Positions 24,039 through 46,025 of a stretch of 64,000 nucleotides of DNA are shown here, in pieces. The first letter of the stretch is position 1. The number at the start of each line of letters is the position of its first letter. Origin of the DNA: a candidate division FCPU426 bacterium (GTDB lineage: Bacteria > Oederibacteriota > Muellerivitia > Muellerivitales > Muellerivitaceae); the NCBI GenBank assembly GCA_963771075.1, contig CAVYSE010000018.1:96001-160000 (forward strand), written 5' to 3'. A program made the position numbers and the translations under genes. The notes under the pieces are model-generated. The model had not been told where the DNA came from and did not search any database. It saw only the letters and a program-made list of their open reading frames with translations.

Positions 24039-24518
24039 ATCGCCAAGACACGAAGACACGAAGGAAATCCAAATGGATTTTGTTCAAACGGACAAAGCCA
24101 TGATGAAAATAGACGATGATACGGAAAGAATCGCCAAGGAAATTGTCGATTCGGCTTATCAAGTCCACAATCTTTTAGGCCCTGGCCTCTTAGAGAGTGC
24201 TTACGAAGTATGTCTGGCTCACGAATTAGAACTTAGGGGCTTAAAAATTGAACGCCAGGTGGAAGTGCCTTTTGAGTATAAAGGAATTCGTATAGACGCA
24301 GGATTTGTTGGTGGAAAAGCGAGTTATCGTGGAAGTTAAGGCGATGGAGGGTTTGCTTCCCGTTCACCGATATCAGTTGATCACTTATTTAAAGCTTTCA
24401 AAACACAATCTGGGTTTTCTTGTAAACTTTAATGAATCTGTCATCAAGAATGGACTAAAACGAATTATTCTTTCAAAGTAATGATTCATCGTTTTTCGCG
24501 TCTTGGCGTCTTCGCGAT
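24039..24518. mobile_element. Octamer-IR cassette 1, carrying a GxxExxY pseudogene
   Basis: Arms 24039-24062 and 24495-24518, 20/24 complementary; between pyrF and pyrE. Confidence 0.7.
24073..24481 (+). pseudogene. GxxExxY-family (PDDEXK_3) protein, frameshifted near 24305
   Basis: LGPGLLESAY motif; second frame continues [12 protein letters not shown]...YLKLS...GFLVNF to TAA at 24481. Confidence 0.88.
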
Positions 24519-24542
24519 TAAACTTTGAAGTTCGGGGGGAAA

Positions 24543-25124
24543 ATGACGAACGACGAAGTCCTGAAAATATTCGAGGAAACACACGCCCTCTTGAAGGGGC
24601 ATTTCCGCCTTTCCTCGGGCCGCCACAGCGACCGGTATTTACAATGCGCCCTGGTGTTGCAATATCCCTGGCAGGCGGAGAAGCTAGGGCAAGCCCTCGC
24701 GGAAAAAGTCAAGGAATTGAAGCCCCAGGCGGTTCTTTCGCCCGCCATGGGCGGGCTTTTCGTGGGGCATGAACTGGCCCGCGCGCTCAAGGTCCGGTCG
24801 ATCTTCACCGAACGCAACAAGGAAACCGACGCCATGGAACTCAAAAGGGGTTTTACCGTGGAAAAGGGCGAGAGGATCTTCACCGTCGAGGATATATTCA
24901 CGACCGGGAAATCCGTCAAGGAATCCTACCAGGTGGTCCGCAATATGGGCGCCGAGGTGGTAGGCGTGGGATGCCTGATCGACCGCAGCGGCGGCGAAAT
25001 TGCCTTTGACGTGCCGGTCCGTTCGCTGGCGTCCTTGAAGGTGGAAAGCTGGGAAGAGAAGGATTGCGCCCTTTGCAAACAGGGGATGCCGGTGGTGAAA
25101 CCCGGTTCCCGGTCCAAATTCTAA
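24543..25124 (+). CDS. pyrE: Orotate phosphoribosyltransferase
   Basis: GHFRLSSGRHS, VEDIFTTGKS and KPGSR motifs. Confidence 0.96.
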   Translation: MTNDEVLKIFEETHALLKGHFRLSSGRHSDRYLQCALVLQYPWQAEKLGQALAEKVKELKPQAVLSPAMGGLFVGHELARALKVRSIFTERNKETDAMELKRGFTVEKGERIFTVEDIFTTGKSVKESYQVVRNMGAEVVGVGCLIDRSGGEIAFDVPVRSLASLKVESWEEKDCALCKQGMPVVKPGSRSKF

Positions 25125-25149
25125 GGAAAACGTCAACTTCAAGGATTAG

Positions 25150-25278
25150 CGCCAAGACACGAAGAAGAGTAGGCATAAAATGAACGGGGTTAACCAATTA
25201 GGAGTGTAAAAGGAATAAGTCTTTGACTTTAGTGTTCGCACGAAGAACTTGTTTTCTTGGGGCCTTCGTGTCTTGGCG
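25150..25278. repeat. Octamer-IR cassette 2 (empty)
   Basis: Perfect 15-bp IR CGCCAAGACACGAAG (25150-25164) / CTTCGTGTCTTGGCG (25264-25278); AT-rich interior. Confidence 0.8.
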
Positions 25279-25311
25279 ATGGATTTGAAGTTAATCGATA
25301 ATGAGGTTTGA

Positions 25312-25596
25312 ATGCCCGAAAAGAAACCCCAACCTAAGACCGATTCCTCTCCCGCCGACCGAAACACGGTCCGGGAATATATCCAGGCGAACCTGCTGGT
25401 ATGGGGTTTCCTGGTATTGCTGGGAATCATCGCCTTCTTCTTCGTGTGCGGGGGAGTTTGGGATGACGTGTCCGAGGGGACCCTGGAATTCCTTTTCGTG
25501 ATCATGGGCGGCGGCTTTACCCTGGTATCCGCCTTGGACTATCTTTACGACCGGAATTTCCGCGCCCAAGCCGCCAACGAGGAGGAACATTCTTGA
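25312..25596 (+). CDS. Small two-TM membrane protein
   Basis: Two hydrophobic segments; GAGG RBS; overlaps the next gene. Confidence 0.7.
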   Translation: MPEKKPQPKTDSSPADRNTVREYIQANLLVWGFLVLLGIIAFFFVCGGVWDDVSEGTLEFLFVIMGGGFTLVSALDYLYDRNFRAQAANEEEHS

Positions 25597-26654
25597 ACTC
25601 TTTCTTGAATAAAAGGATTGCGCTGTTTCTGGCCTGGACCCTCCTGTTTTCCCCCGGGATGACCGCCCTTTCCTTCGCCCAGGCGGCGAATGCCACGGGG
25701 GCGAATGCCATGGCGGCGAACACACCTTTGGCATCGTCGGCCAACGCGGCCGCGACCCCTTCGCCGGCCGACCCCGACGAGCTTTCCACGATCCAGCACC
25801 TGGCCCAAGCCGGTTATTTAGGCGATCAAAAGGCCAAATACCTTTCTGAAAACTTGACCGAGGACCAGATTACGGACGCGTTATTGGCCATTTATGAACA
25901 GCTTTCCGCCGTGGATTCCAAGACCCTATCCCCTGGAAACAAACAATATACGCTGGATGATTTGCAGGCCCTCCAGGCGCTGGTCAAGGATAAGGCGGAG
26001 GATATCCGTGCCCGGAAGGTTTCCTCCTGGCGTTTTGATAACAAGATCCAGAAGATGATCGCGGCCCTCGGCGGAACCGCCCCTGCCCCGGCCAGTACGG
26101 CCGCGCCCCCGCCCACCGCGACTGTCCTTCCCGCAGCGCCCACCGCGACCCCTACCCCGGTCGTCACGCCCGGCCCTTCACGGCAGGAGTTCGAAAGTTT
26201 GAAATCCAACCTCCAGGATTTGGACCGGAAAACCCTGGACATCCAAAAGAGCTATGACCTGAAAGCCGATGAAATCGCCAAAAGCAACGATGAAATGAAG
26301 AAATCCAACGCGGAGGTCCGGGAACAGCTGGACCTGGTGAAAAACCTCATCGACCGGGTCCAGGAAGACCTTCAAAAGACGGAAAACCGCCTGGAGCAGG
26401 TGAGCCAAAAGGCGGAGGAAAAGAACATCACGGACACGGAGCTGGAGCAGGAATTAACGGTCATGCACAAGGATATGAGGGATAATGTGCAGGATGTGAG
26501 CGTACTCAAGCAGGAAGTGGCGAAGTTGGATAAGAGCGGCGAGGTCAAGAGCGAGAACGTGCTGGACCAGGTCCTTGACTCGAAATGGCTCGCGGGCGGG
26601 GCCCTGGTGGTCGGGTTGGCCGCCTTGGTGGTGGGTTTAAGCAACCATAAGTAA
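25593..26654 (+). CDS. Exported coiled-coil protein with a C-terminal hydrophobic anchor
   Basis: Signal peptide, Pro/Ala/Thr linker, long heptad region, C-terminal WLAGGALVVGLAALVVGLS. Confidence 0.75.
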   Translation: MNSFLNKRIALFLAWTLLFSPGMTALSFAQAANATGANAMAANTPLASSANAAATPSPADPDELSTIQHLAQAGYLGDQKAKYLSENLTEDQITDALLAIYEQLSAVDSKTLSPGNKQYTLDDLQALQALVKDKAEDIRARKVSSWRFDNKIQKMIAALGGTAPAPASTAAPPPTATVLPAAPTATPTPVVTPGPSRQEFESLKSNLQDLDRKTLDIQKSYDLKADEIAKSNDEMKKSNAEVREQLDLVKNLIDRVQEDLQKTENRLEQVSQKAEEKNITDTELEQELTVMHKDMRDNVQDVSVLKQEVAKLDKSGEVKSENVLDQVLDSKWLAGGALVVGLAALVVGLSNHK

Positions 26655-26729
26655 ACCGGGGGTTGTTCTGGAACCGCCGGTAAGGTGGGGCGGGTAAATT
26701 TAAAAGAGTTTTGAATAAAGGAGCGGACC

Positions 26730-27380
26730 ATGTTCTTAGGACATTATGGGGTCGGGATGGCGGCGAAAAAGATCGCCCCAAAAACTTCCCTGGGCATTCT
26801 CCTGGCGGCGGCCCAGTGGCTGGACATTCTCTGGCCGCTTTTCCTGATCCTGGGCATCGAGCATGTACGCATCACGCCTAATTGGACCAAGCTCAGCCCG
26901 TTGGAGTTTTACGACTTTCCCATGTCCCACAGCCTCCTGATGGTCGGCTTTTGGGCCTTGCTATGGTGGCTGGTTTCCACGGCCCTTAAGATGAACTGGA
27001 AAGTCTCGCTGATCCTTCCGGGCCTGGTCGTGAGCCATTGGGTCTTGGACCTGCTGGTCCACCGCCCGGACCTTCCGCTGACGCCGCGAAGCAGCACGGT
27101 GATGGGATTGGGATTGTGGAACTATCCCATCTGGACCATCAACCTCGAGTTCATCCTATTGATCGTCGGATTCGCCCTCTATATCGGCTGCACGGAGGCA
27201 AAAGATAGGATCGGTTCCATCGGTCCTTGGGTCTTGACCGGCTTTCTCGTGGCCGTCTATGTGGCCAGCCTGGTGTCCCCGCCGCCGCCCTCATCGGATT
27301 TCGTCGCCTGGATGGCCCTTTCCCTATGGGCGCTTTACCCCATCGCCCATTGGATCGACCGGCACCGTAAGCCTGCCTGA
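26730..27380 (+). CDS. Membrane-bound metal-dependent hydrolase-like protein
   Basis: MFLGH, SHSL and SHWVLDLLVHRPDLP motifs; multiple TM helices. Confidence 0.75.
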   Translation: MFLGHYGVGMAAKKIAPKTSLGILLAAAQWLDILWPLFLILGIEHVRITPNWTKLSPLEFYDFPMSHSLLMVGFWALLWWLVSTALKMNWKVSLILPGLVVSHWVLDLLVHRPDLPLTPRSSTVMGLGLWNYPIWTINLEFILLIVGFALYIGCTEAKDRIGSIGPWVLTGFLVAVYVASLVSPPPPSSDFVAWMALSLWALYPIAHWIDRHRKPA

Positions 27381-27382
27381 AC

Positions 27383-27823
27383 ATGAAGCCCATTACGGTC
27401 CGGAAGGCCAACGATTCGGACGAAAGCGCCCTGGCGCTGGTATACCGGGCCGTCTTTTCCTCCCCCCCCTACCAGGAACCCTGGACCGACCACGCGGCAC
27501 GGTTACGGGTGCGCCAGCTTCTCCAGGCCATCGACGGCATGGGTTGGGTCGTGACCCTTTACGGCCAGCCTGTAGGTTTTGCCTTCATTCAAATGAAAGA
27601 GGGATACAACGGCAGCTACGTGGAACTTTTAGAAACCGCGGTGCACCCCTATCTTCAGGGCCAAGGAATGGGGAGCCTCCTGATGGGGGAAGTCCTGAAG
27701 TTCAAAAGGTCCAAGAAATTGAAAACCCTCTATGGGGTTTGTTTGAATCCAAAACTCGGAACCTTTTTCAAGAAATGCGGGTTTAAACTTTCAAAACGGG
27801 CAAGACTTTGGTCCAAACTTTGA
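27383..27823 (+). CDS. GNAT-family acetyltransferase
   Basis: AVHPYLQGQGMGSLLM motif A; FFKKCGF. Confidence 0.88.
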   Translation: MKPITVRKANDSDESALALVYRAVFSSPPYQEPWTDHAARLRVRQLLQAIDGMGWVVTLYGQPVGFAFIQMKEGYNGSYVELLETAVHPYLQGQGMGSLLMGEVLKFKRSKKLKTLYGVCLNPKLGTFFKKCGFKLSKRARLWSKL

Positions 27824-27985
27824 TGTTCGATGTGAAAATTGACACTTTTGAATTAAATCGATAGAAATTTAACGTTTAAACCCTTTTAAATAGCTAAAAA
27901 CGTATCAAGACCCCCCGAAAACTTAGTTTTTGATGGTATGGAAAATGCTTTTCCTAAATGAAACGATTCTTTTCAAGGGGATAGC

Positions 27986-28129
27986 ATGGCTCGGGTTTGG
28001 ATCCTACTTATGGGTTTGGTCTTAATGACTTTGGCTTTTGCTTGCGCTTCGCGAAGCCTGCAATCGCCGGTGAATCCCGAACAGGGCCTCACCCTCGTTC
28101 CCACCGCGACCTTGACGCCGACACAATAA
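27986..28129 (+). CDS. Small lipoprotein with a Pro/Thr tail (47 aa, not in ORF track)
   Basis: MARVWILLMGLVLMTLAFAC lipoprotein signal then ASRSLQSPVNPEQGLTLVPTATLTPTQ; AAGGGGA RBS. Confidence 0.6.
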   Translation: MARVWILLMGLVLMTLAFACASRSLQSPVNPEQGLTLVPTATLTPTQ

Positions 28130-28150
28130 GACACTGATTCAAGCTGGCCT

Positions 28151-29837
28151 TCATTCAATCCTCAAACCTGCCGCTTTAACCTCCAACGTCAAACTTCTTT
28201 CTTTCGTGAGCGTCACCATTCCCATGGGTGCCCCGGGGATGCGCCTCACATTTTTCTTTTCGGTGTAACTCACGGTCACCTTTTCCCCGGCCTTGGCCTT
28301 GCTGCGCGTGGCCGCGGCCTGGGCCGCCATATGGATGAGTTCAAGGGTGGGTACGGCCCCGCGCTGGAGGCGGCGGAGCAAAACATGGGAACCGGGCAAA
28401 TCCCGCACATGGAACCAGAGGTCCTCCGGCTGGGCCAGTTGGAAGGTAACGTAATCATTGGCGGCGGCGGAAGTGCCCGCGCAAAGCTCGAATTCCTTTC
28501 CGATTTTTTCCCGGAAAATATTGGGGGTCGGCACCTTTTCAATCCTGGGCTTGGCGGTTTTGAGCCTGACGGCCTTCTCGACCGGGAAGAGTTCCTGGTG
28601 GGCCTTCTTAATCTCCCGGGGGTCTTTGAGGGCGGGCAGGCTCCGCTGGGCCGATTTCAACTGCTCGATCCGGGTCTTGACCTCGTTTTCCCTTTTTTCA
28701 ACCTGGGCCAGTCCCCTCGATCCCTTTTGGGCCTTCTTGAAATAACGCTGGGCGTTCAGGAGGGGAGTGGCTTCCGGGTCGAGGGGAACGCGTTGAAGCT
28801 CGGGGTTTCCCCGGATCACGTCCTCCAAGACCGTCTCGGACTGGTGGATCTTGATCTTGTGAAGCTGGGCCATGATCAGTCTCGCCCCACCATTGGTATT
28901 GGTCGGACCGTTCGGCTTCGGCCGGTCTTTCTTCAGCTTTTCCATGATCCGTTTCTCATGCTTGAGCGCCTTGGCGATCTCGCTTTCCAAGGTGGTTTTT
29001 TGGGAAAGCCAATGGCGGTGCTGGTTGTCCAATTGGAACAACCGGGAGAGGGCCTGATAGGCGGTGGGGAAGGTTTCCCTTTCCTTGGCCGTGGGAATGG
29101 ACTCGTGGAAGAGGCGCAGGACCGGGGGCGGGCCCAGGAACAGGATGAAATCATGCCAAGGGCCCCTCCAGCGCAAGCTTTTTCACCCGGTCCCATTCGG
29201 TAAAGGCGCCGTCGCTAAAGCTTTCCAGGTAGACCGGAAAGCTCAGGGTCGGTGCCCCGCAAATCGGTTTTCAGCCAAGGTCCGAGGGGCGGACGGCCCG
29301 CCATGGGCCCAGAGAGCTTGGAGGGACGATGGGTCCAAATCCCAAAGGTTGGGCTTGTCCCCGGGCTGGGGGGCGGGGGAATAGGGGACCTGGGGAAGCA
29401 CCGGCCTTTCCGAGTCGTTGCGGTAACGCAGGGCGCTGATGATCCCGCCGTCGCCGCCGATCAGGATCAAATTCGGATACTTGGGGAGCCCCTCGAAGAT
29501 CAGCTTGAACGGACCGTCGTGGGTCTTCAAAAGAATCTGGATCACCCTTTGGCCGGGTTCCTGGACCACGTCCAGGACCTGGGCGTAATCCAGGTTCTTG
29601 CGCAGGGACCTGCAAAAATTGGGAGGCTTGTCCAGGGCGGGAGGTTTTTGATCGGTCAGGAAGAGGATCGGCTTCAGGGCCATCAGGGCCGTGACCAGGT
29701 AATAGGTTCTGCCGGTCGGGGTGGTAAAGGGACAACTCCACATGGTCGGGGGAGGACTGGGAGACGTGGGAGACCCTTGAACCGGGTAATAGGGATTTCA
29801 GTTCCCGGGCCAGCAGGGTGGCGAGTAGGGGTGTCAG
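28151..29837 (-). CDS. NFACT/Rqc2 (RqcH, FbpA-like) ribosome quality-control protein, broken by several frameshifts
   Basis: FCRSLRKNL, NLIL, NAQRYFKKAQK and DLWFHVRDLPGSHV motifs spread over several frames; start is approximate. Confidence 0.8.
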
Positions 29838-29969
29838 GTTTGGGTCCTCAAGGTTGGCATTGGGTTGAATTTTACCATTTTGTTTGAAGGGTAGGGCCCT
29901 TGTTTGGGGGGGCCGGGGGGAATAAACTGAGGAAGATACAGGGTGATCGCAAGGCTCAAGGGGACGCGG

Positions 29970-31650
29970 ATGGATCAGCCATGGCTATCTTCTTATGACC
30001 GGGGAGTGCCAAAAACCCTTGAATACCCGGAATGCACCCTTCCGGACCTGCTCCAACAAACCGCCGAAAAGTACCCCCGCCATTCCGCGATCCATTATTT
30101 CGGTTCGACCCTCACCTACCGGGAACTCAACCAAAAAGTCGACCAATTCGCCAATCTTTTGATCCGGGAGGGCGTCCAACCCGGCGACCGGGTGGCCCTT
30201 TACCTGCCCAACTGCCCGCCTTGTGTCATCGCCTTTTTCGGGGCCATGCGGGCCGGGGCGGTGGTGACGCAATTGAACCCCCTCTACTCCAAAACCGAGA
30301 CCGTCCACCAGCTGAAAGATTCGGGGGCGAGGGTGGTGGTGTCGCTGGACCGGTTCGTGCCCATCCTCGATTCGATCATTGAGGAATGCGGCCTTCGAAA
30401 AATTTGGCTGACCCGCATCAACGATTATTTCGCCAAACCCCTGAAGTGGTTTTATCCCCTGCGCGCGATGGCGCAAAAGTCCTGGGTGCGTTGGCCGGAT
30501 AAGGCCATTTACCGAAGTTTCGTGAAGGACCTGGATTCGGCTCTCGGCGCCAGTCCATGCCCTGTCCCTGGCGAAGATGGACGACACGGCCATCCTGCAA
30601 TATACCGGCGGAACCACCGGGGTTTCCAAGGGCGTGATCCTGACCCAGCGGAACCTGGTGGCCAACGCTTACCAGTGCAAGTTGTGGTTCCCGGGCATTC
30701 CCGACGGGAGCGCGGTCTTTTTGATCGCGGTGCCGATTTTCCATTGCTACGGCTTGACCGCGGGCATGAACTTCGCGCTTTTCAAAGCCTCGCCCATGGT
30801 GCTCCTGCCCAAGTTCGACGTAACGCAGGTGCTGGAGGCCATCCAAAAATACAAGGTGGCGGTTTTCCCGGGTGTGCAGGCCATGTACAACGCCATCAAC
30901 CAGCATCCCCGGACCTCCCATTACGACCTTCGAAGCATCGTGGCCTGCCTTTCCGGCGCCGGGCCCCTGCACCTGGAGGTCCAGAAGAAATTCGAGGAGC
31001 TGACGGGCGGGCGTGTCTCGGAAGGCTACGGGCTGACCGAGGCATCCCCCGTCACGCATTGCAACCCCATTTTTGGAAAACGCAAGATCGGGTGCATCGG
31101 CGTGCCCTTTCCGGGTACGGATTGCAAGATCGTGGACTTGGAGACGGGCAAGAAGACCCTGGGCGCGGGGGAGGTCGGCGAGATTATCGTCAAAGGCCCG
31201 CAGGTCATGCAGGGCTACTGGAACCACCCGGAAGAAACCGCCAAGGTATTGAAGGACGGATGGCTTTATACGGGGGACATCGGGACCATGGACGCCGACG
31301 GGTTCTTTTCCGTCGTGGACCGCAAGAAGGATATGGTCAAGGTCGGGGGTGAAAGTGTATTCCCGCGCGAGGTGGAGGAAGTTTTATTCCAGCACCCCAA
31401 AGTCCTGGATTGCGTGGTGGCGGGCGTGCCGGACGCGGCCATGGTGCACAAGGTGAAGGCCTACATCGTTTTGAAACCGGGCCAATCGGCCGATCCCCAG
31501 GACATCATCGATTTTTGCAAGGGGCAAATGGCGAAATACAAGGTCCCCAAGGACGTGGAGTTCAGGGAGTCTTTGCCCAAGAACATGATCGGGAAGATGC
31601 TGAGGCGGTTGCTGGTGGAAGAAGAAAAGGAAAAACTAAAGAAGATTTAA
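29970..31650 (+). CDS. fadD: Long-chain fatty-acid-CoA ligase, frameshift near 30540-30576
   Basis: PWLSSYD N-terminus; LQYTGGTTGVSKG, EGYGLTE, WLYTGD and GKMLRR motifs. Confidence 0.88.
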
Positions 31651-31692
31651 CCGCCAAGACGCAAAGACGCCAAGGGAACCTTTGGAGGATTT

Positions 31693-32082
31693 ATGGTAGA
31701 GAATTTTCCATATTGTTTATCGGGGGTTGATGATTCGTTATTTGAAGGAAAGATTAAGAATTTTGCCTCGGGTGATAGGTTGCGCTTCAAAAGTATTGTT
31801 ATTTATCGAGATAAGAATTGTATTTATGTGACTACCGAGGGAAATACGACTCCTGAGAATGCAATCGACGAAACGAAAGCAATTTTTGATGTTGCTCAAA
31901 AACAATTGGAAGAAATAACAAATCGGAGCTTTGACTTCAAAAAGTTGATAGATGGTGTTTCAGTTGAGTTTTTACTGTTTGGCCCAATAGGTAATTTTCT
32001 TGCCATTATGAAAGACGGTGAGATGGATTTTGATATAGGCCGATATTTGCAAATGGCGAACCGGGAAAGTTTCGGGAGATGA
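31693..32082 (+). CDS. AT-rich hypothetical protein (cassette cargo)
   Basis: GGAGG RBS; 129 aa; composition differs from the flanking genes. Confidence 0.7.
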   Translation: MVENFPYCLSGVDDSLFEGKIKNFASGDRLRFKSIVIYRDKNCIYVTTEGNTTPENAIDETKAIFDVAQKQLEEITNRSFDFKKLIDGVSVEFLLFGPIGNFLAIMKDGEMDFDIGRYLQMANRESFGR

Positions 32083-32124
32083 AATAATTTAGTAGTTCTT
32101 GGCGGCTTGGCGGTGAAAAAAGAT

Positions 32125-32313
32125 TTAGGGGGCTAATATCAAATTCGCCATTTTTTCCCTGACCTCGATGTGGGAGAGGGTTTGGCGGGTATCGGCCTGT
32201 TGAAGACCCTTTTCGATTTTCGCCAGGAACAACAATCGCTCCATGGCGTCTTCAATGGAAGCGTTTTTCGGAAGGGCTTGAACAGCTTTGAGTGTTTTTT
32301 GTTTCGCGGTCAT
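32125..32313 (-). CDS. Small antitoxin-like protein (62 aa) without an adjacent toxin
   Basis: MTAKQKTLKAVQALPKNASIEDAMERLLFLAKIEKGLQQAD resembles small antitoxins found upstream of RelE/ParE toxins. Confidence 0.6.
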   Translation of the reverse strand: MTAKQKTLKAVQALPKNASIEDAMERLLFLAKIEKGLQQADTRQTLSHIEVREKMANLILAP

Positions 32314-32400
32314 AAAAGAAGAATAACAGCATTGATGGGCTGGTTCAATATTTCGGTTTTCTTCGCGTCTTCGCGGTAAAAAAGCCTTTAGGGGGCGAAC

Positions 32401-33591
32401 ATGAAAGAAGTGGTCATCGTGGACGGGGTCCGGACGCCCATGGGCGTTTTGGGCGGGGCCTTGAAAGACGTTCCGGCGCAGGACCTGGCCGTCGCGGTCA
32501 TCAGGGAGATCGTGAAGCGTAACAACCTGAAAGGCAGCGAGGTCGAGGAAGTGATCCTGGGCTGCGTGGGGCACTCCTCGGACGCCTTAAACGTGGCCCG
32601 GGTCTCGGCGTTGATAGCGGGACTTCCCAAAGAGACGACCGGTTATACGGTCCAGCGCAACTGCTCCTCAGGGATGCAGGCGGTCGTTAACGCCTTCCAG
32701 AATATCCAATGCGGGGACGCGGATGTGCATATCGCGGGCGGGACCGAGTCCATGAGCCGGGCGCCCTACCTCAACCGGGATATGCGCTTTGGCAAGCGGA
32801 TGCGGGATTCCATCATGGTGGACAGCCTGACGGAAGGCCTGACCGACGCGGTATGCCACCTCATCATGGGCCAGACGGCAGAGGTTTTGGCCGAGGAATT
32901 CCAGATTTCACGTAAGGAACAGGACGAATACGCCGTCCAAAGCCATAAAAAGGCTTTCCGGGCCCAGCGGGAAAACAAGTTCAAGGAAGAGATCGTGCCG
33001 GTCATGGTGCCGAAAAAGGTGCTGGGAAAGCCCGTGACCCCCGAGCCGGTCAACCAGGATGAAGGCATCAACGCCGCGCTGAATGAGCAAAGCCTGGCCA
33101 CCTACCCCACTATCTTCAAGGAGAACGGAACCGTGACCCCCGGCAATTCCTGCGGTATCAACGACGGAGCCTGCGCCTTGCTGGTGATGAGCAGGGAAAA
33201 GGCCGACGCCTTGGGTTATCAACCCCTGGGTTATATCCGTTCTTACGCCTTCGCGGGGGTTGAGCCGGAGAGGATGGGCATCGGGCCGGCTCTTGCTATC
33301 CCCAAGGCCTTGAAAAAAGGCGGGTTGGAAATGAAGGACATGGGTTTGATCGAGATCAATGAGGCTTTCTCGGCCCAGATCCTGGCGGTGGACCGGATGC
33401 TCAAAATGAACCGGGAAATCTTGAACGTGAACGGCGGTGCCATCGCCATCGGGCATCCGGTAGGAATGACCGGCGCCCGGTTGATCTTGACGGCATTAAG
33501 GGAAATGGCCCGCCGTAACGTTAACTTATCCGTTATTTCCATGTGCGTGGGCGGAGGCATTGGAGGAGCGATGGTGTTTGAAAGGAAATAA
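32401..33591 (+). CDS. Acetyl-CoA acyltransferase (thiolase)
   Basis: QRNCSSGMQA, EINEAF, GGAIAIGHPVG and MCVGGG motifs. Confidence 0.95.
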   Translation: MKEVVIVDGVRTPMGVLGGALKDVPAQDLAVAVIREIVKRNNLKGSEVEEVILGCVGHSSDALNVARVSALIAGLPKETTGYTVQRNCSSGMQAVVNAFQNIQCGDADVHIAGGTESMSRAPYLNRDMRFGKRMRDSIMVDSLTEGLTDAVCHLIMGQTAEVLAEEFQISRKEQDEYAVQSHKKAFRAQRENKFKEEIVPVMVPKKVLGKPVTPEPVNQDEGINAALNEQSLATYPTIFKENGTVTPGNSCGINDGACALLVMSREKADALGYQPLGYIRSYAFAGVEPERMGIGPALAIPKALKKGGLEMKDMGLIEINEAFSAQILAVDRMLKMNREILNVNGGAIAIGHPVGMTGARLILTALREMARRNVNLSVISMCVGGGIGGAMVFERK

Positions 33592-35792: not shown

Positions 35793-35895
35793 ACCGCGAA
35801 GTCGCGAAGAAAAGCTAAACACCCAGATTGGAACCCCAAGATGAATTTGATAAGTATTGAACGACATTTTGAGGTATTTTTCGCGTCTTCGCGAT
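35793..35895. repeat. Octamer-IR cassette 4 (empty)
   Basis: ACCGCGAAGTCGCGAA / TTCGCGTCTTCGCGAT, 14/16 complementary. Confidence 0.78.
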
Positions 35896-36837: not shown

Positions 36838-36973
36838 TTTCCACCCCGAAGGGCCGAAGTTAAATCAATGTTAAGCCCGATTTAAGGTATTTCTTCCCGT
36901 GGTTGCCCCAAAGGGTGAGTTTTTTCAATTTGTTATGACCCTTAATGCCATCCTCGTGTCTTCGCGGTGGAAA
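36838..36973. repeat. Octamer-IR cassette 5 (empty, degenerate left arm)
   Basis: TTTCCACCCCGAAGGGCCGAAG / CCTCGTGTCTTCGCGGTGGAAA. Confidence 0.6.
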
Positions 36974-37074: not shown

Positions 37075-37163
37075 ATCGACTCATTCGGTTTTTAACAACA
37101 AGTTTCATGTCCCGCGGGCCCCGTTCTAAAGGGCCCGGGATTCAAATCACAGGAGGTTGGTTG

Positions 37164-37454: not shown

Positions 37455-37494
37455 TTTTTAGCAGGTTCAACATTCACTTTTTAACATTCGATAA

Positions 37495-39153
<1,659 letters not shown>

Positions 39154-39156
39154 AAG

Positions 39157-39191
39157 CAGTCCGCAGTCGACAGCTAACGGTCGACGGCTAG
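39157..39191. repeat. 7-nt tandem array C
   Basis: CAGTCCG CAGTCGA CAGCTAA CGGTCGA CGGCTAG just after the groEL stop. Confidence 0.65.
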
Positions 39192-39207
39192 AAGCAAAGG
39201 CTAAATC

Positions 39208-39240
39208 AAAAGCCCTCGGCGAAGACGCCGGGGGCTTTTT
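39208..39240 (+). terminator. Rho-independent terminator of groESL
   Basis: AAAAGCCCTCGGCG-AAGA-CGCCGGGGGCTTTTT. Confidence 0.88.
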
Positions 39241-39326
39241 GCTTTATGGAGCCCAGAGGTGGCGTTGACACTACCCGGTTCCATCCCTATTATTAAGTTC
39301 ACTTAGAGAGAAAAAGGGGAAAAACA

Positions 39327-39632
39327 ATGCCGAATTACGACTATGCCTGCGATAAATGCGGGAAATTTGAGGTTTGGCAATCCATAAAGGATAATGCCCT
39401 AACCGCCTGCCCGACCTGCGGGTCCAAGGTGGAAAGGCTGATCTCGGCCAATGTGGGTTTTATCCTGAAGGGATCAGGGTTCTACCAGAATGAATACAAG
39501 AATAAACCGGCGGCACCGGTGATGGATAAGAAACAACCCGCTCCGGCTGTTGAAACCACCCCCCCGGCTTCTTGCGCGGCGGGAGATGCCTGTTGCGGCG
39601 GGGTTTGCAGCACGGCTTCATCGGATAATTGA
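39327..39632 (+). CDS. FmdB-family zinc-ribbon protein
   Basis: MPNYDYACDKCG...CPTCG...KGSGFY. Confidence 0.9.
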   Translation: MPNYDYACDKCGKFEVWQSIKDNALTACPTCGSKVERLISANVGFILKGSGFYQNEYKNKPAAPVMDKKQPAPAVETTPPASCAAGDACCGGVCSTASSDN

Positions 39633-39661
39633 TTATTTAATATAACTTCGGGAGTCTAAGC

Positions 39662-39847
39662 ATGGCACCAGGATGGATCATCGGGATCGTAGTGGGTTAC
39701 GTTTTTTTCAACCTGGGATTATGGAAGTCCGATTCCACACCCAAACCCCAGGACACCCTTTGGGCCATGGCCATGCTGGGGGGAACCCTGCTGATGTTCG
39801 TTTCCGTGCTGTTGTGGGCCGTTCCCAATTTCTTTACCGCTCCCTGA
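39662..39847 (+). CDS. Small membrane protein
   Basis: Two hydrophobic segments; GGAG RBS. Confidence 0.6.
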   Translation: MAPGWIIGIVVGYVFFNLGLWKSDSTPKPQDTLWAMAMLGGTLLMFVSVLLWAVPNFFTAP

Positions 39848-39863
39848 ACCCTCGAGGAAACCC

Positions 39864-40193
39864 TTGAAAGAACTCATCAGCGAACAACAGGCCGACTGGA
39901 TCATCCTGGGTTTATCGGTCGCCATCGCGCTGGGTGGTTTGGTGTTCGGCTTCCTCTTCTCCAAAACCAAAAAGGGCGCTGAAAAAAAGGCCCATTGGGC
40001 CCAGGCCTTGCTGGTGACCCTCATCGGGTTGACCGTCTGGGGCTTTTGGAACCTTTACAATTCCATCGAGAATTACTACGGCCTGGATTCCCTGAAGGCC
40101 TTGGGCATCAATTTTTGTATCGCGGTCGGTTTGGGCCTTTTGTTTTTAGCCCTATTCTGGTTTGTCCCTTCCTGGGCCTCGAAATCCAAGTAG
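39864..40193 (+). CDS. Three-TM membrane protein
   Basis: Three hydrophobic segments; GAGG RBS. Confidence 0.65.
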   Translation: MKELISEQQADWIILGLSVAIALGGLVFGFLFSKTKKGAEKKAHWAQALLVTLIGLTVWGFWNLYNSIENYYGLDSLKALGINFCIAVGLGLLFLALFWFVPSWASKSK

Positions 40194-40337
40194 TTTTCAC
40201 CGCGAAGAAAGACTTAAACCATCTATGTTTCAACACCAAGACACCCGGCCTTTTGAAACACAATCATTGGGTAATGGCCCGGAAACCAAACCATTAACCC
40301 GGCTATTCCCGATGCCCTCGCGCTTTCACGGTGAAAA
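40194..40337. repeat. Octamer-IR cassette 6 (empty, decayed)
   Basis: TTTTCACCGCGAA / TTCACGGTGAAAA (12/13); starts at the base after the TAG stop. Confidence 0.65.
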
Positions 40338-40398
40338 ATGCGTCTTGTTTGGGACTTTTCACCAAAACTGCCACCGGGCAGAGTGCGTCTAAACGATC

Positions 40399-41289
40399 AT
40401 GAAATCCCCAAGTTCTTCCGATCCCCTTTCCGTATTAAGAGAAGTTAAAAGGCTCGAACTCGTCACCCGCGGGGCGGTGGACACCCTCTTGAAAGGTTCT
40501 TACAAGAGCACCTTCCGGGGCCAGGGTCTTGAATTCCACCAGGTGCGGGAATACGACCCCCAGGACGATTACCGTTCCATCGATTGGAACGTGACCGCCC
40601 GGCTGAACGCCCCCTACGTCAAGACCTTCATTGAGGAAAGGGAACTGCAGGTCATACTGGCGGTGGACCTTTCCGCGTCCCTCTGGTACGGCACAGGGCC
40701 TTCCAGCAAACGCGAGACCGCCCTGCGGCTTTGCGCCCTTTTGGCTTTTGCCGCCGTCCAGCACCAGGACCGGGTCGGGCTTCTCGTCTTCACGGACCGA
40801 GTTGAGTATTACGTGCCTCCCAAAAGGGGCAAGGCCGCTACCTTAGGCCTGCTGCGGACCCTCATTACCTTCAAGCCGAAGGGGAAAAAAACCCTCTTTC
40901 GTCCAGCCCTTCAAATGCTCACCAAAGTCCTGCGCCGCCGTAGCGTTCTTTTTTGGATCTCCGACTTTACCGAACCCATTCCCATGGAGGAGGCCAGCTT
41001 CCTCGCCAAGAGGCACGACATGGTCGCCGCGGTTTTGAAAGACCCCGTCGAAGCGGGTTTCAAGCTGCCCGCGAGGGTGGCGGTGCGGGATCCCGAGACC
41101 GGCAAGGTGGGTTTTCTATCGCCCGGGTCCATGAAGGCCTACCAAATGGCCGATGAGTTCCGGGAAAAACAGCTGAGGGCCTTGACCGCCAAGGGGGTGG
41201 ACCGGCTTAACCTGACCGCCGGGGCCGGGGTCGTGACCGCCTTGAAGGGTTTCTTCAAGACCCGCATGGAACGCATGGGCAGGCGCTGA
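40399..41289 (+). CDS. DUF58 (MoxR-associated) protein
   Basis: GQGLEFHQVREY, IDWNVTAR, VDLSAS and WISDF motifs. Confidence 0.92.
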   Translation: MKSPSSSDPLSVLREVKRLELVTRGAVDTLLKGSYKSTFRGQGLEFHQVREYDPQDDYRSIDWNVTARLNAPYVKTFIEERELQVILAVDLSASLWYGTGPSSKRETALRLCALLAFAAVQHQDRVGLLVFTDRVEYYVPPKRGKAATLGLLRTLITFKPKGKKTLFRPALQMLTKVLRRRSVLFWISDFTEPIPMEEASFLAKRHDMVAAVLKDPVEAGFKLPARVAVRDPETGKVGFLSPGSMKAYQMADEFREKQLRALTAKGVDRLNLTAGAGVVTALKGFFKTRMERMGRR

Positions 41290-42386
41290 TGATCCCCGGG
41301 AACTTCCATTTCGCCGACCCCCAATGGCTATACCTGGCCTTCGCGCTTCCCCTGGTGCCCCTGGCTTTTTACCTTTCCGCCCGGCTTAAGCCTTCCACCC
41401 TTTACCTTGGAAACCCCCGGCTCGTCGCGGCCGCGCCCAGCTTCTGGTCCGGGGTTTGGTTTCCCTGGCTCCTGCGGCTGTTGGTTCTTCTGCTTTGCAT
41501 CGTGGCCGCCGCCAAGCCCCAGGCCGGCCAAAAAAAAGTGGAGCAGAAAAAACAAGTGACCGACCTTTTCGTGGCCTTCGACGTTTCCGGCTCCATGCTC
41601 ACGGCCGATCTGAAACCCAACCGGGTTACCGCCGCCAAGAAGCTTCTTTCGGAGTTCCTGGACAAGGTTCAGGATGTGCGGGTGGGACTGACCGTTTTCG
41701 CCAGCATCAGTTTTACCCAGTGCCCCCTGACCACCGACATGGCCATCGTTAAAAAACTACTGGCCAACGTGGATGTCTATTCGGTCAAGCTGGATGGGAC
41801 CGCCATCGGGGACGCGCTCGTCTCAAGCTTGAATCGGATGCAACAAGGCATTGGAAAGATAGGCGGCGACGAAGAAACCAAACCCACACTGATTGGAAAA
41901 TTACTGGCCGAACCCACTCCAAGCGGCGAAGCCGCGCCCAAGGACACCCAGGCGATCCTTCTTCTCACGGACGGGGGCAACAACGCCGGGATCGTGGACC
42001 CCCTTCAAGCGGCCCGGATCCTAGCCTCCAAGGGCGTGAAGGTTTACGCCATCGGGGTGGGTGGAAATGGTTCAGCCAACCTGTTTTACCAGGGACGGAC
42101 TTACGCCCAAACCGATCAATATGGAAACCCGCTTCACGACGAAGGGGTGGACAAGGTGCTTTTAGGTGAAATCGCACGCATTACGGGGGGAAGGGTTTAT
42201 TTTGCCCAGAACAACCAAGCCCTCGAGAGCGTCTTAAAAGACATAGCCCAGCTTCAAAAAAGAGAGGTTTCCACCGTAACCAGCTGGCAATACGAGGAAC
42301 TGGGTTTTTGGTTCCTATTGGCCGCTTTTGCCCTATTGCTCCTGGACTTGGTTTTGGAAACCACCCTATTGAGGACCTTGCCATGA
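41289..42386 (+). CDS. BatA-like vWA-domain membrane protein
   Basis: FADPQWL, DVSGSM MIDAS, PLTTD, GTAIGDA and LLTDG motifs. Confidence 0.9.
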   Translation: MIPGNFHFADPQWLYLAFALPLVPLAFYLSARLKPSTLYLGNPRLVAAAPSFWSGVWFPWLLRLLVLLLCIVAAAKPQAGQKKVEQKKQVTDLFVAFDVSGSMLTADLKPNRVTAAKKLLSEFLDKVQDVRVGLTVFASISFTQCPLTTDMAIVKKLLANVDVYSVKLDGTAIGDALVSSLNRMQQGIGKIGGDEETKPTLIGKLLAEPTPSGEAAPKDTQAILLLTDGGNNAGIVDPLQAARILASKGVKVYAIGVGGNGSANLFYQGRTYAQTDQYGNPLHDEGVDKVLLGEIARITGGRVYFAQNNQALESVLKDIAQLQKREVSTVTSWQYEELGFWFLLAAFALLLLDLVLETTLLRTLP

Positions 42387-43387
42387 CAGGATTGAATATC
42401 GATTTTGGCAACCCCAACGCTTTGTTTCCGCTCTTAACAGTCCTTCTTTTGATGCTGGCTTGGGGAGCCTGGACCCTTTGGAAGGATCGCCGGGACCTGG
42501 ATTATTTGGGTGAGCAAAACCTGGTCTGGTCCCCGCTGAGGGTTTGGGCCCGCCGGGCCGTGAAGGGAACCTTGGCCTTGGTCGCGCTTGTCTTTTTGTT
42601 TTTGGGAGCCGCCCAGCTTCAGGGCAAACCGGTTCCCGAAGAACTGAATATGAGCGGTGTGGACGTCATGATCGTACTGGATGTCTCGAAAAGCATGTTG
42701 TCCCAAGACATCCTTCCGAACCGGCTCACGGCCGCCAAGCGGGCACTTTTCAATTGGATTTCCAACCGGCAGGGGGACCGGGTAGGCCTAGTCATCTTCG
42801 CCGGGGAATCCCTGGTTCAAGTGCCGCTGACCATGGATTTAAACGCCGTCCAGTTGGTCTTGGTCAAGGCGGATCCGGACGAGGTGGACAGGGGAGGAAC
42901 GGATATTGGCGAGGGAATCCAGACCGCCCTGGATTCACTGGATAAAGAGGAAGATAAAAAAAGAGGGAAGGCCATTCTGCTGATGACCGACGGGGAGATA
43001 ACGGAGGGTTCTGCCATCCTACCGAAGGTTCTTGAGCGGGCTGCGCAAATGAAGGTTCCAATCGTAACGGTAGGCATGGGCACCCCCCAGGGAAGGCCGA
43101 TCCCGGACGGAACGGCCTTTTGGGGCGAGATGACTTATAAGAGAGACGCTGGAGGGTCGGTTCACATCAGTCGGCTGGATGAGACGACGCTTCGCCATAT
43201 TGCCGACTCGACCTGGGGTGAATATATCCCGGGCGATACCGAACAGAACCTCAAGTCGATCAATTCGACGCTGGATAAGCTTCAAAAAACACTGATGAAG
43301 GGCGAGGGCGGCATGAAGAGGGAAGAACTTTCCCCCCGGATGGCCCTGGGGGCCGCCTTTTCGCTTTTCCTGGCTTCGGTGTTATGA
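42383..43387 (+). CDS. BatB-like vWA-domain membrane protein
   Basis: LDVSKSM, DRVGLVIFAG, GTDIG and MTDGE motifs; ATGA overlap. Confidence 0.9.
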   Translation: MTGLNIDFGNPNALFPLLTVLLLMLAWGAWTLWKDRRDLDYLGEQNLVWSPLRVWARRAVKGTLALVALVFLFLGAAQLQGKPVPEELNMSGVDVMIVLDVSKSMLSQDILPNRLTAAKRALFNWISNRQGDRVGLVIFAGESLVQVPLTMDLNAVQLVLVKADPDEVDRGGTDIGEGIQTALDSLDKEEDKKRGKAILLMTDGEITEGSAILPKVLERAAQMKVPIVTVGMGTPQGRPIPDGTAFWGEMTYKRDAGGSVHISRLDETTLRHIADSTWGEYIPGDTEQNLKSINSTLDKLQKTLMKGEGGMKREELSPRMALGAAFSLFLASVL

Positions 43388-44463
43388 AGATGGGCATGGA
43401 ACCTATGGAAACAAATCAAAATCCAACGCAAAACCACAAAGAGCCAACGAAAGGCGTAATCTTTTTGGGGAAACCAAACACGAATAAAACCCGATTGCTA
43501 TGCCCGGAAAAATCACTATTTTCCCAGTGGCTTGCAGTTTTATTGCTGGCGATTTTGCCGGGGATGAGCCATGCCTTCAGCCTATCGCCGGGCCGGGACG
43601 CCTATGAGGGCAAGGACTACCTGCAGGCCGAAAAGATTTTCGGGGAAGAGGCCCAGAAGAATAAAAATGATTGGGCCGCCGCCTATGGATGGGGAAACGC
43701 CTTGTACCAGGAAGGGAAATATTCAGAGGCCCAAAAGGCATATGAACAGTCCTTGGAGCATAAACCTGACATGGAATCGGGCTGGTACAACCTGGGCAAC
43801 AGCTATTTTCAGCAACAAAGGTATAAAGACGCCATTGAGGCATACAAAAAGACTCTTCAGCTGGACCCTAAAGACAGCGACGCAAAACATAACCTGGAAT
43901 TGGCGGAAAAACTGATGAAGGAGAGTCCCAAATCGGACAAGAGCGACGAAAAACGCAAGGAAGAACAACAAACTCCCAGCCCGACCCCCACCCAACCTCC
44001 AGGCCAACAAAACAACCAGCAGGGCGGGAAGTCCGATCAACAGCAAAACGACTCAAACTCAAAGAATCCAAACAATTCCCAAAACCCTTCAAATCAAAAG
44101 AACCAAAATCAAAATCAGGGGCAACAGCAAAAGCCGGCCGCTTCCAAACAACAACAAAACCAACAGCAGGCCGAACAACAACGCCAGCAGCAGGCTGCCC
44201 AACAACGCCAGGCGGACCAGCAAAGGGCCGAGGAGGCGAAGAAACAGATGGGCATGTCTGATGAGCAGGTGAAGCAGTTGATGTCCCAGCTTCAAAATCG
44301 GGAAGCCCAGGCCCAGCGTTTTTATTCGCCCCATCCGGACCGGGACAGCAAAAAAGCGCAGGATAACTTCTGGAATTTTCTTCCCAGGGAAAATAGCGAG
44401 TTCATGAAGCGTTTTTTTGGACAGCCATCCAACGATAAAAACCAGCCTGCGGAGGATTGGTGA
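43384..44463 (+). CDS. BatC-like TPR protein with a Gln/Asn-rich tail
   Basis: YNLGNSYF...AIEAYKKTL...DAKHNLE; ends EDW. Confidence 0.85.
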   Translation: MKMGMEPMETNQNPTQNHKEPTKGVIFLGKPNTNKTRLLCPEKSLFSQWLAVLLLAILPGMSHAFSLSPGRDAYEGKDYLQAEKIFGEEAQKNKNDWAAAYGWGNALYQEGKYSEAQKAYEQSLEHKPDMESGWYNLGNSYFQQQRYKDAIEAYKKTLQLDPKDSDAKHNLELAEKLMKESPKSDKSDEKRKEEQQTPSPTPTQPPGQQNNQQGGKSDQQQNDSNSKNPNNSQNPSNQKNQNQNQGQQQKPAASKQQQNQQQAEQQRQQQAAQQRQADQQRAEEAKKQMGMSDEQVKQLMSQLQNREAQAQRFYSPHPDRDSKKAQDNFWNFLPRENSEFMKRFFGQPSNDKNQPAEDW

Positions 44464-44564
44464 GCCGGTGGCCATTTTGCCTGCCGTTCGGGTTAGAATA
44501 CGCGGGCTCGAGGGGCTGGCGGCATTGACGAAAGCGGAAGTCAAGAACATAAGGAAGGGAAAGC

Positions 44565-45560
44565 ATGAAACCGATTGAAACGAGAAAAAACAGGCCTTGG
44601 ACCCTCTGGGTCCTGGCCTTTCTACTGGCCGCTCCCCTGGCATCCCAAACGAATAACAGCGGGGAAGAAGTGGGCCTGCGAATGGACGTGGATAAAAGGC
44701 AGGTGGAGGTGGGCGATACACTTTCCCTCACGATCGAATTCAAGCAATTGATGGTGGGAGGAAGCAATGTATCCGCCCAGCCTAATTTCCCGACCCCGGA
44801 GCTTTTTCAGGAAGGCAGTAGCTTTAATTCCACGCAAGTCACCATCGTGAACCAAAAGACGGCCCAGACGACCACGACCCACATGAACCTGGTGGCGGTT
44901 AAACCCGGAAGCGAAACCTTGGGGCCCGCCAGCGTCATTTTTCAGGACCCTTCCGGGAAAAGGCAGGAGATCCGATCCAATGTGATCAACGTGACGGTCA
45001 CCGAAAAAAAGCCGTTTTCCCTTTTTGGAGGGTCCAAACCGACTTCCCTGCCGGCGGTGAACCCGGCTCCGGCCCAGGCTCCCGCGGATGAGGGCTTAAG
45101 GGACCTGAAACCATTGTTGCCGGATCCCATCCTCTTCTTGTTGAAGCTGTTAATTTGGATCGCCATTCTCGTCTTAGTTGGAGTCTTGGTTTGGAGGATC
45201 ACGAAACCCAAAAAATCCGCCGTTAAAGGTCCCCCCCCCATCGGGGAGGAAAAGCGCTTGAGGGATATCTGGAAAAAACTTTCCGACGAGGACCTTTCCG
45301 CGGAGATTTTCTGCCGGTCCCTGTCTTCCCTGGTCCGCGAGTGCCTCCAATACCATTTTGAGTTCGACGCGGTGGATCTTACGACAGAGGAAATATTCCG
45401 GGAATTGAAGAAACATGAATTAACCTCCAAGGAGATGGAGGCCGTTGAAAAGTGCCTGAAGGCCTGCGACCGGGTGCTTTACGCCGATGGGAACCTGACG
45501 GGAAGGGACGCCCTGCGTGCCCTTGCCTCGAACCTGCTGCCGAAGGTGTCAAACAATTGA
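44565..45560 (+). CDS. BatD-like protein
   Basis: Signal peptide, VDKRQVEVGD Ig-like domain, TM helix, LTTEEI. Confidence 0.75.
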   Translation: MKPIETRKNRPWTLWVLAFLLAAPLASQTNNSGEEVGLRMDVDKRQVEVGDTLSLTIEFKQLMVGGSNVSAQPNFPTPELFQEGSSFNSTQVTIVNQKTAQTTTTHMNLVAVKPGSETLGPASVIFQDPSGKRQEIRSNVINVTVTEKKPFSLFGGSKPTSLPAVNPAPAQAPADEGLRDLKPLLPDPILFLLKLLIWIAILVLVGVLVWRITKPKKSAVKGPPPIGEEKRLRDIWKKLSDEDLSAEIFCRSLSSLVRECLQYHFEFDAVDLTTEEIFRELKKHELTSKEMEAVEKCLKACDRVLYADGNLTGRDALRALASNLLPKVSNN

Positions 45561-46000
45561 ACCGCGAAGACGCGAAGGTAAACCCGGTAAAGAAATTCGG
45601 GAAAGATGATATATCGATCGAGAAGAATGATATCGCCAGAACGGTTGTTGACGCAGCTTTCGCGGTGCATCGGGAAATGGGCCCCGGATTGTTGGAAAGT
45701 ATTTACGAGTCATGCTTGGTTAAAGAGCTGCAAAAACGGAATGTTGGATTCGAACGGCAAAAATGTATTCCAATTCACTATGCCGGTGAATTATTAGATG
45801 AAAAGTTTCGATTGGATTTGTTGGTTGAAGAAAAAATAATTGTTGAAATAAAAGCTGTAGAAGAACTATTGCCTATTCATGAGGCGCAGGTTTTGACTTA
45901 TCTCAAACTTATAGGGTGCGAGATTGGTTTTTTAATCAATTTTAACGTCCGTTTCATCAAGGATGGCATCCGGCGGATTGTTTTGTCAAAAAAACACTAA
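45557..46000 (+). CDS. GxxExxY-family (PDDEXK_3) putative nuclease
   Basis: MGPGLLESIY, RLDLLVE...IVEIKA, QVLTYLK and GFLINF motifs; probable TTG start overlaps the upstream TGA. Confidence 0.9.
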   Translation: MNREDAKVNPVKKFGKDDISIEKNDIARTVVDAAFAVHREMGPGLLESIYESCLVKELQKRNVGFERQKCIPIHYAGELLDEKFRLDLLVEEKIIVEIKAVEELLPIHEAQVLTYLKLIGCEIGFLINFNVRFIKDGIRRIVLSKKH

Positions 46001-46025
46001 AAGACGTTCTTCGCGTCTTCGCGGT
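45561..46025. mobile_element. Octamer-IR cassette 7, carrying an intact GxxExxY gene
   Basis: Perfect 17-bp IR ACCGCGAAGACGCGAAG (45561-45577) / CTTCGCGTCTTCGCGGT (46009-46025). Confidence 0.78.

Follow-up and report, generated by a model that had tools for sequence, protein, structure and literature searches.

What are the inverted arm pairs that recur between the genes of a candidate division FCPU426 bacterium, and why would some of them enclose a small gene of the GxxExxY family? We address this question in a stretch of 64,000 nucleotides (nt), hereafter the window (GenBank assembly GCA_963771075.1, contig CAVYSE010000018.1, positions 96,001 to 160,000 of the forward strand), in which an original prediction made from the sequence alone had placed seven such elements (numbered 1 to 7, Table 1). 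All seven were found where they had been placed, with inverted arms of CRCVAAG-type units and, as had been claimed, with AT-rich interiors (GC content 0.41-0.47 vs. 0.55 for the window), and all lie between protein-coding genes. The family occurs in many bacterial phyla, and sequence comparison suggests that its complete form carries a gene for a Cas4-like nuclease. The explanation that we favor, and to which we give slightly better than an even chance, is a two-part system in which such a gene sits within inverted arms of three 8-9-nt units, accompanied by dozens of gene-less pairs. The protein would bind the units sequence-specifically and cut the DNA at them. Host repair or gene conversion, rather than cut-and-paste, would then copy and rewrite the arms and occasionally seed new pairs, which would be tolerated at gene ends only and spread slowly. 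Throughout, G000 denotes the genome of the window, G001-G003 three congeners and other G numbers relatives.

To assess the association of the arms with GxxExxY genes, we compared the 260 nt before the gene with the 260 nt after it for inverted repeats and called arms at a score of at least 14. The first set comprised 114 loci from relatives and more than ten phyla, of which 108 were scored (one had no match and five were too short). Arms enclose the gene at 92 of these 108 loci vs. 5 of 200 shifted controls. Arms were also called around the gene at 36 of 40 additional loci from the family and, in a set of 97 loci from metagenomes, the family and viruses, at 68 of 88, so the predicted association is borne out. 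Across genomes, at least 80 arm matches were counted in 22 of the 23 genomes that have a GPGLLE-type gene vs. 1 of the 18 that lack one, a comparison in which the genomes were grouped by eye and kin are not independent. The protein family is very large (7989 of 8000 scored PF13366 candidates were hits), and GxxExxY genes are rare on plasmids and viral contigs (5 of 72,556 plasmid records and five viral loci). Other GxxExxY subfamilies, at L250, L252, L253 and L254 and at L233-L235, are accompanied by arm units of their own (CGCRAAT, together with a KYGYLE motif, and ATGATGAATGGGAT).

The intact gene of the window lies in element 7, and its protein matches the GxxExxY and PDDEXK_3 profiles (TIGR04256 and PF13366) with 148 bits against a cut-off of 22 and 151 against 35. 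The structural model, which is confident (predicted local distance difference test score 89.7), has Cas4 SSO0001 as its top Foldseek match (E 5e-4). In a wider structure search PD-(D/E)XK nucleases tied for the best scores (Z 7.7-8.0, root-mean-square deviation 2.7-3.2 over 93-98 residues), with Cas4 SSO0001 at Z 7.7. The conserved residues are E47, D87, E97-x-K99 and Q111-x3-Y115; among 120 homologs D87, K99, E47 and Y115 do not vary, and E97 is present in at least 90%. Model and alignment agree on a PD-(D/E)XK core fold with an acidic-acidic-lysine active site, and we predict that the protein is a small Cas4-like PD-(D/E)XK nuclease. This fits the earlier claim that GxxExxY proteins belong to this fold and have no established function: a review of the PD-(D/E)XK superfamily gives the function of PF13366/GxxExxY as 'Unknown' (PMC3424549). 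A GxxExxY gene beside a reverse transcriptase is mentioned in the literature. Membership in the CRISPR-associated Cas4 proteins was considered and rejected, as the PADLOC Cas4 profile matched over only ~40 residues (E 0.012-0.015) and the homolog alignment has a single conserved cysteine instead of an iron-sulfur cysteine set. A sequence search with the element 7 protein found no solved structure, and the Atlas gave no usable matches outside PF13366.

One column of the protein alignment varies with the arm unit, namely that of residue 27, which lies in helix 1. The rule was found on 75 genes, among which 32 of 37 with AAG arms have Ala or Gly and all 38 with GAG arms have Thr or Ser (mutual information 0.86 vs. 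a shuffled maximum of 0.41). It held for 14 of 14 and 4 of 4 family loci fetched later; in the metagenome, family and viral set, Ala or Gly occurs in 16 of 20 genes with AAG arms and in 0 of 32 with GAG arms. Pooled over 143 intact genes, the 74 with GAG arms have Thr (55) or Ser (19) and never Ala or Gly, and the 69 with AAG arms have Ala (51), Gly (9), Ser (6), Gln, Cys or Phe (1 each) and never Thr. Several genomes, including that of the window, hold both unit types, with each gene matching its own arms. Here, the copies in elements 1 and 7 have Ala and AAG arms (the codon of Ala27 in element 7, the candidate specificity residue, is at 45635-45637), and a third copy (C5) has Thr and GAG arms. 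In the G045 ortholog of the element 7 gene (L067), unit type and residue are both switched: it has Thr27 and GAG units throughout both arms, and is nested in an AAG clade (Shimodaira-Hasegawa-like approximate likelihood ratio test, SH-aLRT, 97-98). The tree requires 11 unit changes and 10 residue changes, as counted on quick trees of ~123 columns with many open forks. Because one amino acid tracks the arm sequence, the protein likely recognizes the arms, and we take the residue 27 code as a strong lead from sequence covariation, not a demonstration. A more specific version of our reading, which we put forward tentatively and as possible rather than probable, is that GxxExxY proteins are Cas4-like nucleases of ~130 amino acids (aa) whose target would be set largely by this single residue of the helix (CRCNAAG with Ala/Gly, CRCNGAG with Thr/Ser), and that, by host repair alone, they would maintain and rewrite their arms and seed new pairs at stop codons.

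The arms form a family dispersed over the genome. When the genome was scanned with the unit pattern, as had been proposed, the strict two-unit octamer pattern was found 105 times in 4.39 Mb, far above the 2, 0 and 2 occurrences in three order-4 Markov simulations, and 98 of the 105 arrays lie outside predicted genes. Of the 259 arms found with a relaxed pattern, 126 are paired inward and 12 outward. The relaxed catalogue of 81 pairs includes nested duplicates and a recently amplified subfamily wrapped in MITE-like ends (MITE for miniature inverted-repeat transposable element). Removing nine MITE-wrapped rows, collapsing overlaps and dropping spans of at least 800 nt left 59 sites, with AAG (51) or GAG (8) units, a modal pair length of 85-130 nt and mostly unique interiors of 35% GC. 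Most sites are in same-strand junctions (52), with three convergent and four divergent. The pairs begin a median of 19.5 nt 3' of a stop codon. Their bias toward stop over start codons is not significant (31:18, p = 0.085). GxxExxY genes occupy three sites and another credible open reading frame (ORF) one; contrary to the variable cargo described earlier, foreign cargo is rare (1 of 59). The outer 4-mers were compared for signs of target-site duplication, at boundaries left loose by the divergence of the relatives: direct identity occurs in 5 of 49 cases (mean of shuffles 2.0, 95th percentile 4), inverse identity in 7 of 49 (mean of shuffles 5.3). Small palindromes occur inside units with CACAG duplication, and one interior has collapsed to a perfect palindrome; from their sequence, both look like traces of repair at the arms. 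Tiny palindromes inserted in arm units, some duplicating the unit start, were seen at C3:250904 and C18:53238 of G000 and at L033, L173, L242 and L008.

Alignment of the pyrF-pyrE, fadD-thiolase and batD-moxR junctions in relatives revealed filled, gene-less and empty alleles with differing arm types, as anticipated. The 16 resolved pyrF-pyrE junctions comprise three with gene and arms, four with gene-less arms (AAG and GAG types), six short ones and three with other repeats. Among 29 family genomes, the batD-moxR junction has the gene and arms in five, spread over four clades, minimal hairpins in four and other or nested arms in two; the G002 moxR and G012 pyrF junctions were unparsed and left out. 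Arm units of several types occur in 11 of 21 fadD-thiolase junctions; ten of these have a left arm, which in nine begins at a distance of 3-4 nt from the stop codon's first base. Intergenic arm pairs are present in 6 of 27 hydratase-patatin junctions. In relatives, palindromes of unrelated types are also found in these junctions. The minimal batD-moxR hairpins (L071, L074, L076 and L077) resemble the two outer arm ends only and could be deletion scars or targets. The 1.2-kb fadD-thiolase junction of G045 (L183) contains two nested left arms, two other palindrome types and a putative secreted-protein gene, of which a fragment recurs in G008.

In the trees, the five genes at the moxR site group in a single clade (SH-aLRT 97-98). 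Between G000 and G001, this gene has nonsynonymous and synonymous divergences (dN and dS) of 0.156 and 1.71, and synonymous sites are saturated between genera. Because dN/dS is ~0.09 and synonymous sites are saturated, the intact gene is, judged by its sequence divergence, an old resident under purifying selection that has often been lost, at junctions whose contents turn over. This bears on the mobile or gene-capture system originally predicted. A dispersed family with gene-carrying and gene-less forms and with filled and empty alleles does exist. However, gene capture is weakly suggested by one orphan ORF in 59 sites, and ongoing autonomous mobility of the GxxExxY gene is likewise weakly suggested, the intact gene being an old resident and the three copies of the genome only 49-65% identical over the pieces compared.

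Several observations weigh against the nuclease-repeat explanation. The covariation of residue and unit may mostly reflect shared ancestry: only three phylogenetically independent pairs fall on well-supported branches, of which about two agree, none opposes and one is without a residue change (p = 0.5), and Ser27, found with both unit types, is ambiguous. Arms also occur where no gene was found. In G036 (100% complete), whose 66 arm matches lie in young-looking pairs, searches by family and by alignment gave no GxxExxY gene, and G022 (82% complete), with 168 arm matches, gave no GxxExxY match either. Homogenization of the two arms of a pair is null in aggregate, the own right arm scoring 21.99 and the best orthologous arm 21.93 (12 of 27 cases higher, 6 tied, 9 lower). 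The patchy presence at individual sites can be explained by ancestral insertion and loss; the direction of gain and loss is not polarized. The youngest copies (90-97% identical) were probably moved by another enzyme, because they are wrapped in a second inverted repeat like that of an insertion sequence (IS). Finally, a gene of another family, PF05635, shares the gene-in-inverted-arms layout.

Three of these points touch loci with features of their own. The amplified family, which has apparent 4-bp TTAG/TTAA duplications, consists of 150-345-nt copies of a CACAGAG-type arm pair within the IS-like repeat; examples, outside the window, are C3:250898-251062, C28:26512-26676 and C11:126644-126877. 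At C10:29013, C24:137117 and C23:96063, a CGCCAAG pair is wrapped in these outer ends too. No match to these ends was found at the four DDE transposase loci examined among the 18 matches listed, and a stricter first pattern for the ends gave zero pairs. In G036, arm pairs at L370 and L371 have shared interiors and tandem arrays. The PF05635 gene, the sole four-helix-bundle gene of its kind in the genome (L276, C23:79787), is enclosed by inverted arms of heptamer units directly 3' of a stop codon, and similar gene-less heptamer repeats occur at the same junctions in relatives.

The MITE-wrapped young copies, the arms of G036, the null homogenization and the PF05635 layout keep two rivals open. 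The first, which we consider unlikely though the better placed of the two, is drawn by analogy: the nuclease may recognize the arms in the service of the cell, for instance by cutting arm-bearing single-stranded DNA in recombination or DNA uptake, as does SsnA (PMC11893778), with the spread of arms as a by-product. This overlaps with our explanation in biochemistry, and purifying selection at old sites and rarity on plasmids and viruses agree with it as does the SsnA precedent; a tool of this kind is harder to reconcile with a moxR-site gene kept in only 5 of 29 genomes, over four clades, and with two of three copies broken in this genome. The second, to which we give a still smaller chance, holds that the arms are co-evolving binding sites spread by other enzymes or general repair, and that GxxExxY is a passenger in junctions that collect palindromes. 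Arms without a gene in G036, arm pairs riding inside other MITE-like ends, unrelated palindrome types in the same junctions and the layout around the PF05635 gene, which is not a known nuclease, all speak for such a passenger, whereas arm abundance follows gene presence and the catalytic residues are invariant.

Selection on RNA rather than DNA fares worse. The original prediction had proposed that the arms pair in mRNA and loop out the insert, like an intervening sequence (IVS); as in the IVSs of 23S rRNA, the insert might also be excised. The location of 52 of 59 sites between same-strand genes would suit such a role, and in predicted folds 12-20 of the initial 30 nt of an element pair with its other end (z -1.5 to -5.7). 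Selection for an RNA stem should strongly favor G-U over A-C mismatches on the coding strand, and for this reason it is unsupported: the genome arm catalogue has 94 G-U and 78 A-C mismatches besides 151 transversions, the metagenome, family and viral loci have 64 and 56, and the pooled ratio of 158:134 shows no bias (p = 0.18). In addition, the split by junction type does not differ from how frequent the junction types are (p = 0.19 with all junctions counted, 0.046 with only those of at least 60 nt) and the nearest folds of the protein are DNA nucleases, so that we regard an RNA intervening sequence as very improbable. That the arms are only ordinary intrinsic terminators or mRNA-stabilizing stems, as their stable folds and short distance from stop codons might suggest, is hardly credible, since only 5 of 40 right arms have at least five T in the 9 nt after the stem, only 3 of 59 junctions are convergent, and the arms lie up to 480 nt apart and are tied to one gene family.

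Table 1 Features of the seven elements in the window
Feature	Position	Strand	Basis or context
Element 1, inverted CGCCAAG/CACGAAG arm pair, pyrF-pyrE junction	24039..24518	.	Arm search, score
Broken GxxExxY (PF13366) gene inside element 1	24073..24481	+	Profile match; comparison with G001 ortholog
Element 2, gene-less arm pair 3' of pyrE	25150..25278	.	Arm search
Element 3 proper, CGCCAAG arm pair, begins in fadD stop codon	31646..32118	.	Arm search
129-aa orphan ORF in element 3 arm pair	31693..32082	+	Only non-GxxExxY cargo inside an arm pair in this genome
Antitoxin-like remnant 3' of element 3	32125..32313	-	72%-identical homolog in G008
Unpaired CGCGAAG-type right arm ahead of thiolase ribosome-binding site	32358..32377	.	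Same arm type, same place in G008
Element 4, gene-less arm pair, enoyl-CoA hydratase-patatin junction	35793..35895	.	Arm search
Element 5, degenerate gene-less pair ahead of groES promoter	36838..36973	.	Absent in three congeners
Element 6, degenerate gene-less pair	40194..40337	.	Absent in three congeners
Element 7, CGCGAAG arm pair, batD-moxR junction	45561..46025	.	Arm search
Intact GxxExxY gene (TIGR04256/PF13366) of element 7	45557..46000	+	Profile match

Complementary arms had been claimed for all seven elements. Arm-to-arm scores agree for elements 1-4 and 7 (12.5-17), but elements 5 (11.5) and 6 (10.5) are inside the range of the controls (mean 9.5; at least 12 in 22 of 200). With folding z-scores of -1.8 and -4.6, these two are degenerate members of the family. 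An Rfam search of the window gave zero matches.

Both of the divergent GxxExxY genes described earlier are present, but only the copy in element 7 is intact; the third PF13366 locus of the genome, the C5 copy with CACAGAG arms, is broken as well. The element 7 gene likely starts, to judge from its sequence, at a TTG that overlaps the batD stop codon, and its left arm would therefore be translated. In element 1, the frame breaks near 24300, where ~11 nt are missing between two GATTT repeats relative to the G001 ortholog, and the predicted catalytic Asp lies within the deleted piece. This break, a longer deletion between short repeats, is more likely real than an assembly error; among the listed short-read pieces none spanned it. 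Short-read contigs of four DNA runs, which drop rare variants, were compared with positions 23500-43400, and among the contig joints listed none lies at an arm. Relative to these contigs, the window has single-base indel errors at 29158-30569, and the frameshift that splits fadD is thus probably an assembly error.

Element 3 had been described as an unknown gene plus an antitoxin-like gene spanning 31650-32377. Both are there, but the arm pair (473 nt, with the inner right arm at 32097-32118) encloses the 129-aa ORF only, and the antitoxin-like remnant and an unpaired right arm follow the cassette. The ORF has no match above cut-off in Pfam, NCBIfam or PADLOC, a protein search returned only itself, and its best Atlas match is 0.76. 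The antitoxin homolog of G008 adjoins a ParE toxin gene that is absent at the window locus. At the corresponding place behind fadD, G001 has a CGCCAAG pair without a gene; at the element 2 site it has a different arm pair, and G002 and G003 are without any. The view that no host ORF is disrupted has to be qualified. The ORF 5' of element 6 stops six codons before the end that it reaches in each of the three congeners, the outer CGGTGA of the element's right arm coincides with the last codon and stop of the G002 and G003 ORF, and fadD alleles with a left arm at the stop codon are one residue longer than empty alleles.

Elsewhere in G000, single arms lie inside copies of a multi-copy locus of 1.5-2.5 kb (C3:2688, C9:929, C13:1104, C21:1926, C27:30685, C1:180618 and C3:103628). 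A 106-nt perfect inverted repeat near a contig end (L223) was left out of the analysis.

Literature searches, whose scope was text other than subscription journals and supplements, returned no description of the GxxExxY arm family, no paper on TIGR04256 and, when combined, nothing evidently on this family. With the arms, PF13366/GxxExxY has a candidate substrate at almost all of its loci, and residue 27 offers a one-mutation handle on specificity. If our explanation is true, it would account for a kind of repeat that is common between genes in many uncultured lineages, extend the pattern of REPINs (repetitive extragenic palindromic doublets) and Ssn nucleases to a third nuclease superfamily, and put very small site-specific nucleases on offer. 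The more specific version, if true, would make GxxExxY a large untapped family of such enzymes and add to RAYT and Ssn a third enzyme chemistry by which hairpin repeats propagate themselves.

Known systems share parts of this organization. In ORF-bearing 23S rRNA IVSs, long inverted arms surround a gene for a PF05635 four-helix bundle. This genome's own PF05635 gene resembles them, in inverted arms in an operon junction, but the GxxExxY elements are not in rRNA, show no G-U bias and encode a different protein. Like IS-derived MITEs, the elements have terminal inverted repeats and gene-carrying and gene-less forms; unlike them, they have no DDE transposase, mostly unique interiors and no clear target duplication, although some arm pairs are passengers inside MITE-like ends. 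Near-identical whole-element copies, as expected of IS or MITEs, were looked for and rejected: interiors are shared in few pairs, and the multi-copy ones lie inside other outer repeats. With Cas4/RecB-type nucleases (SSO0001, 4ic1), the protein shares the core fold and an E...D...ExK...QxxxY arrangement, which we take to be the motif of that type. It differs from Cas4 in its size of ~130 aa, in having no cysteine cluster among the conserved columns and in an extra N-terminal helix with residue 27, and no cas genes or array are found at the window locus.

Two systems come closest. In Ssn, a small single-domain nuclease gene is flanked by its cognate repeat (NTS/SRM), with many gene-less copies and paired specificities (PMC11893778). 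The NTS-ssnA-NTS arrangement is thus matched here by a nuclease gene within its cognate repeat, many gene-less copies and matched enzyme-repeat types. However, Ssn is a GIY-YIG enzyme of demonstrated activity and the protein here has a Cas4-like fold (PF13366/TIGR04256 by Pfam and NCBIfam) and a predicted activity only; the SRM is a self-contained hairpin of 20-50 nt and the arms here pair only with each other. REPIN-RAYT systems comprise extragenic inverted doublets of ~100 nt with a variable spacer, and few, old and site-stable RAYT genes that are rare on plasmids, with several types per genome, each with its own repeat, and repeats that can outlast the gene (PMC3116915; bioRxiv 10.1101/2021.07.10.451892). 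The present family has similar doublets with variable spacers at its 59 sites and a similar life history of few old enzyme genes, several types with their own repeats and repeats without a gene. As to vertical inheritance of the enzyme gene at a fixed site, a site-specific clade, saturated dS and presence on 5 of 72,556 plasmids were observed, in five taxa, too small a number to judge congruence, while related proteins span many phyla. Unlike RAYT, the enclosed enzyme is a PD-(D/E)XK protein (PF13366) without known strand-transfer chemistry, not an HUH/Y1 transposase, a statement about the enclosed gene, as no search for RAYT genes elsewhere in the genome was made. Moreover, the arms consist of direct 8-9-nt units in tandem where a REPIN arm is a short palindrome, and the gene lies inside one arm pair in operon junctions. 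By analogy, then, the family appears to work like REPIN-RAYT and NTS-ssnA-NTS, and its enzyme family and arm structure place it outside both.

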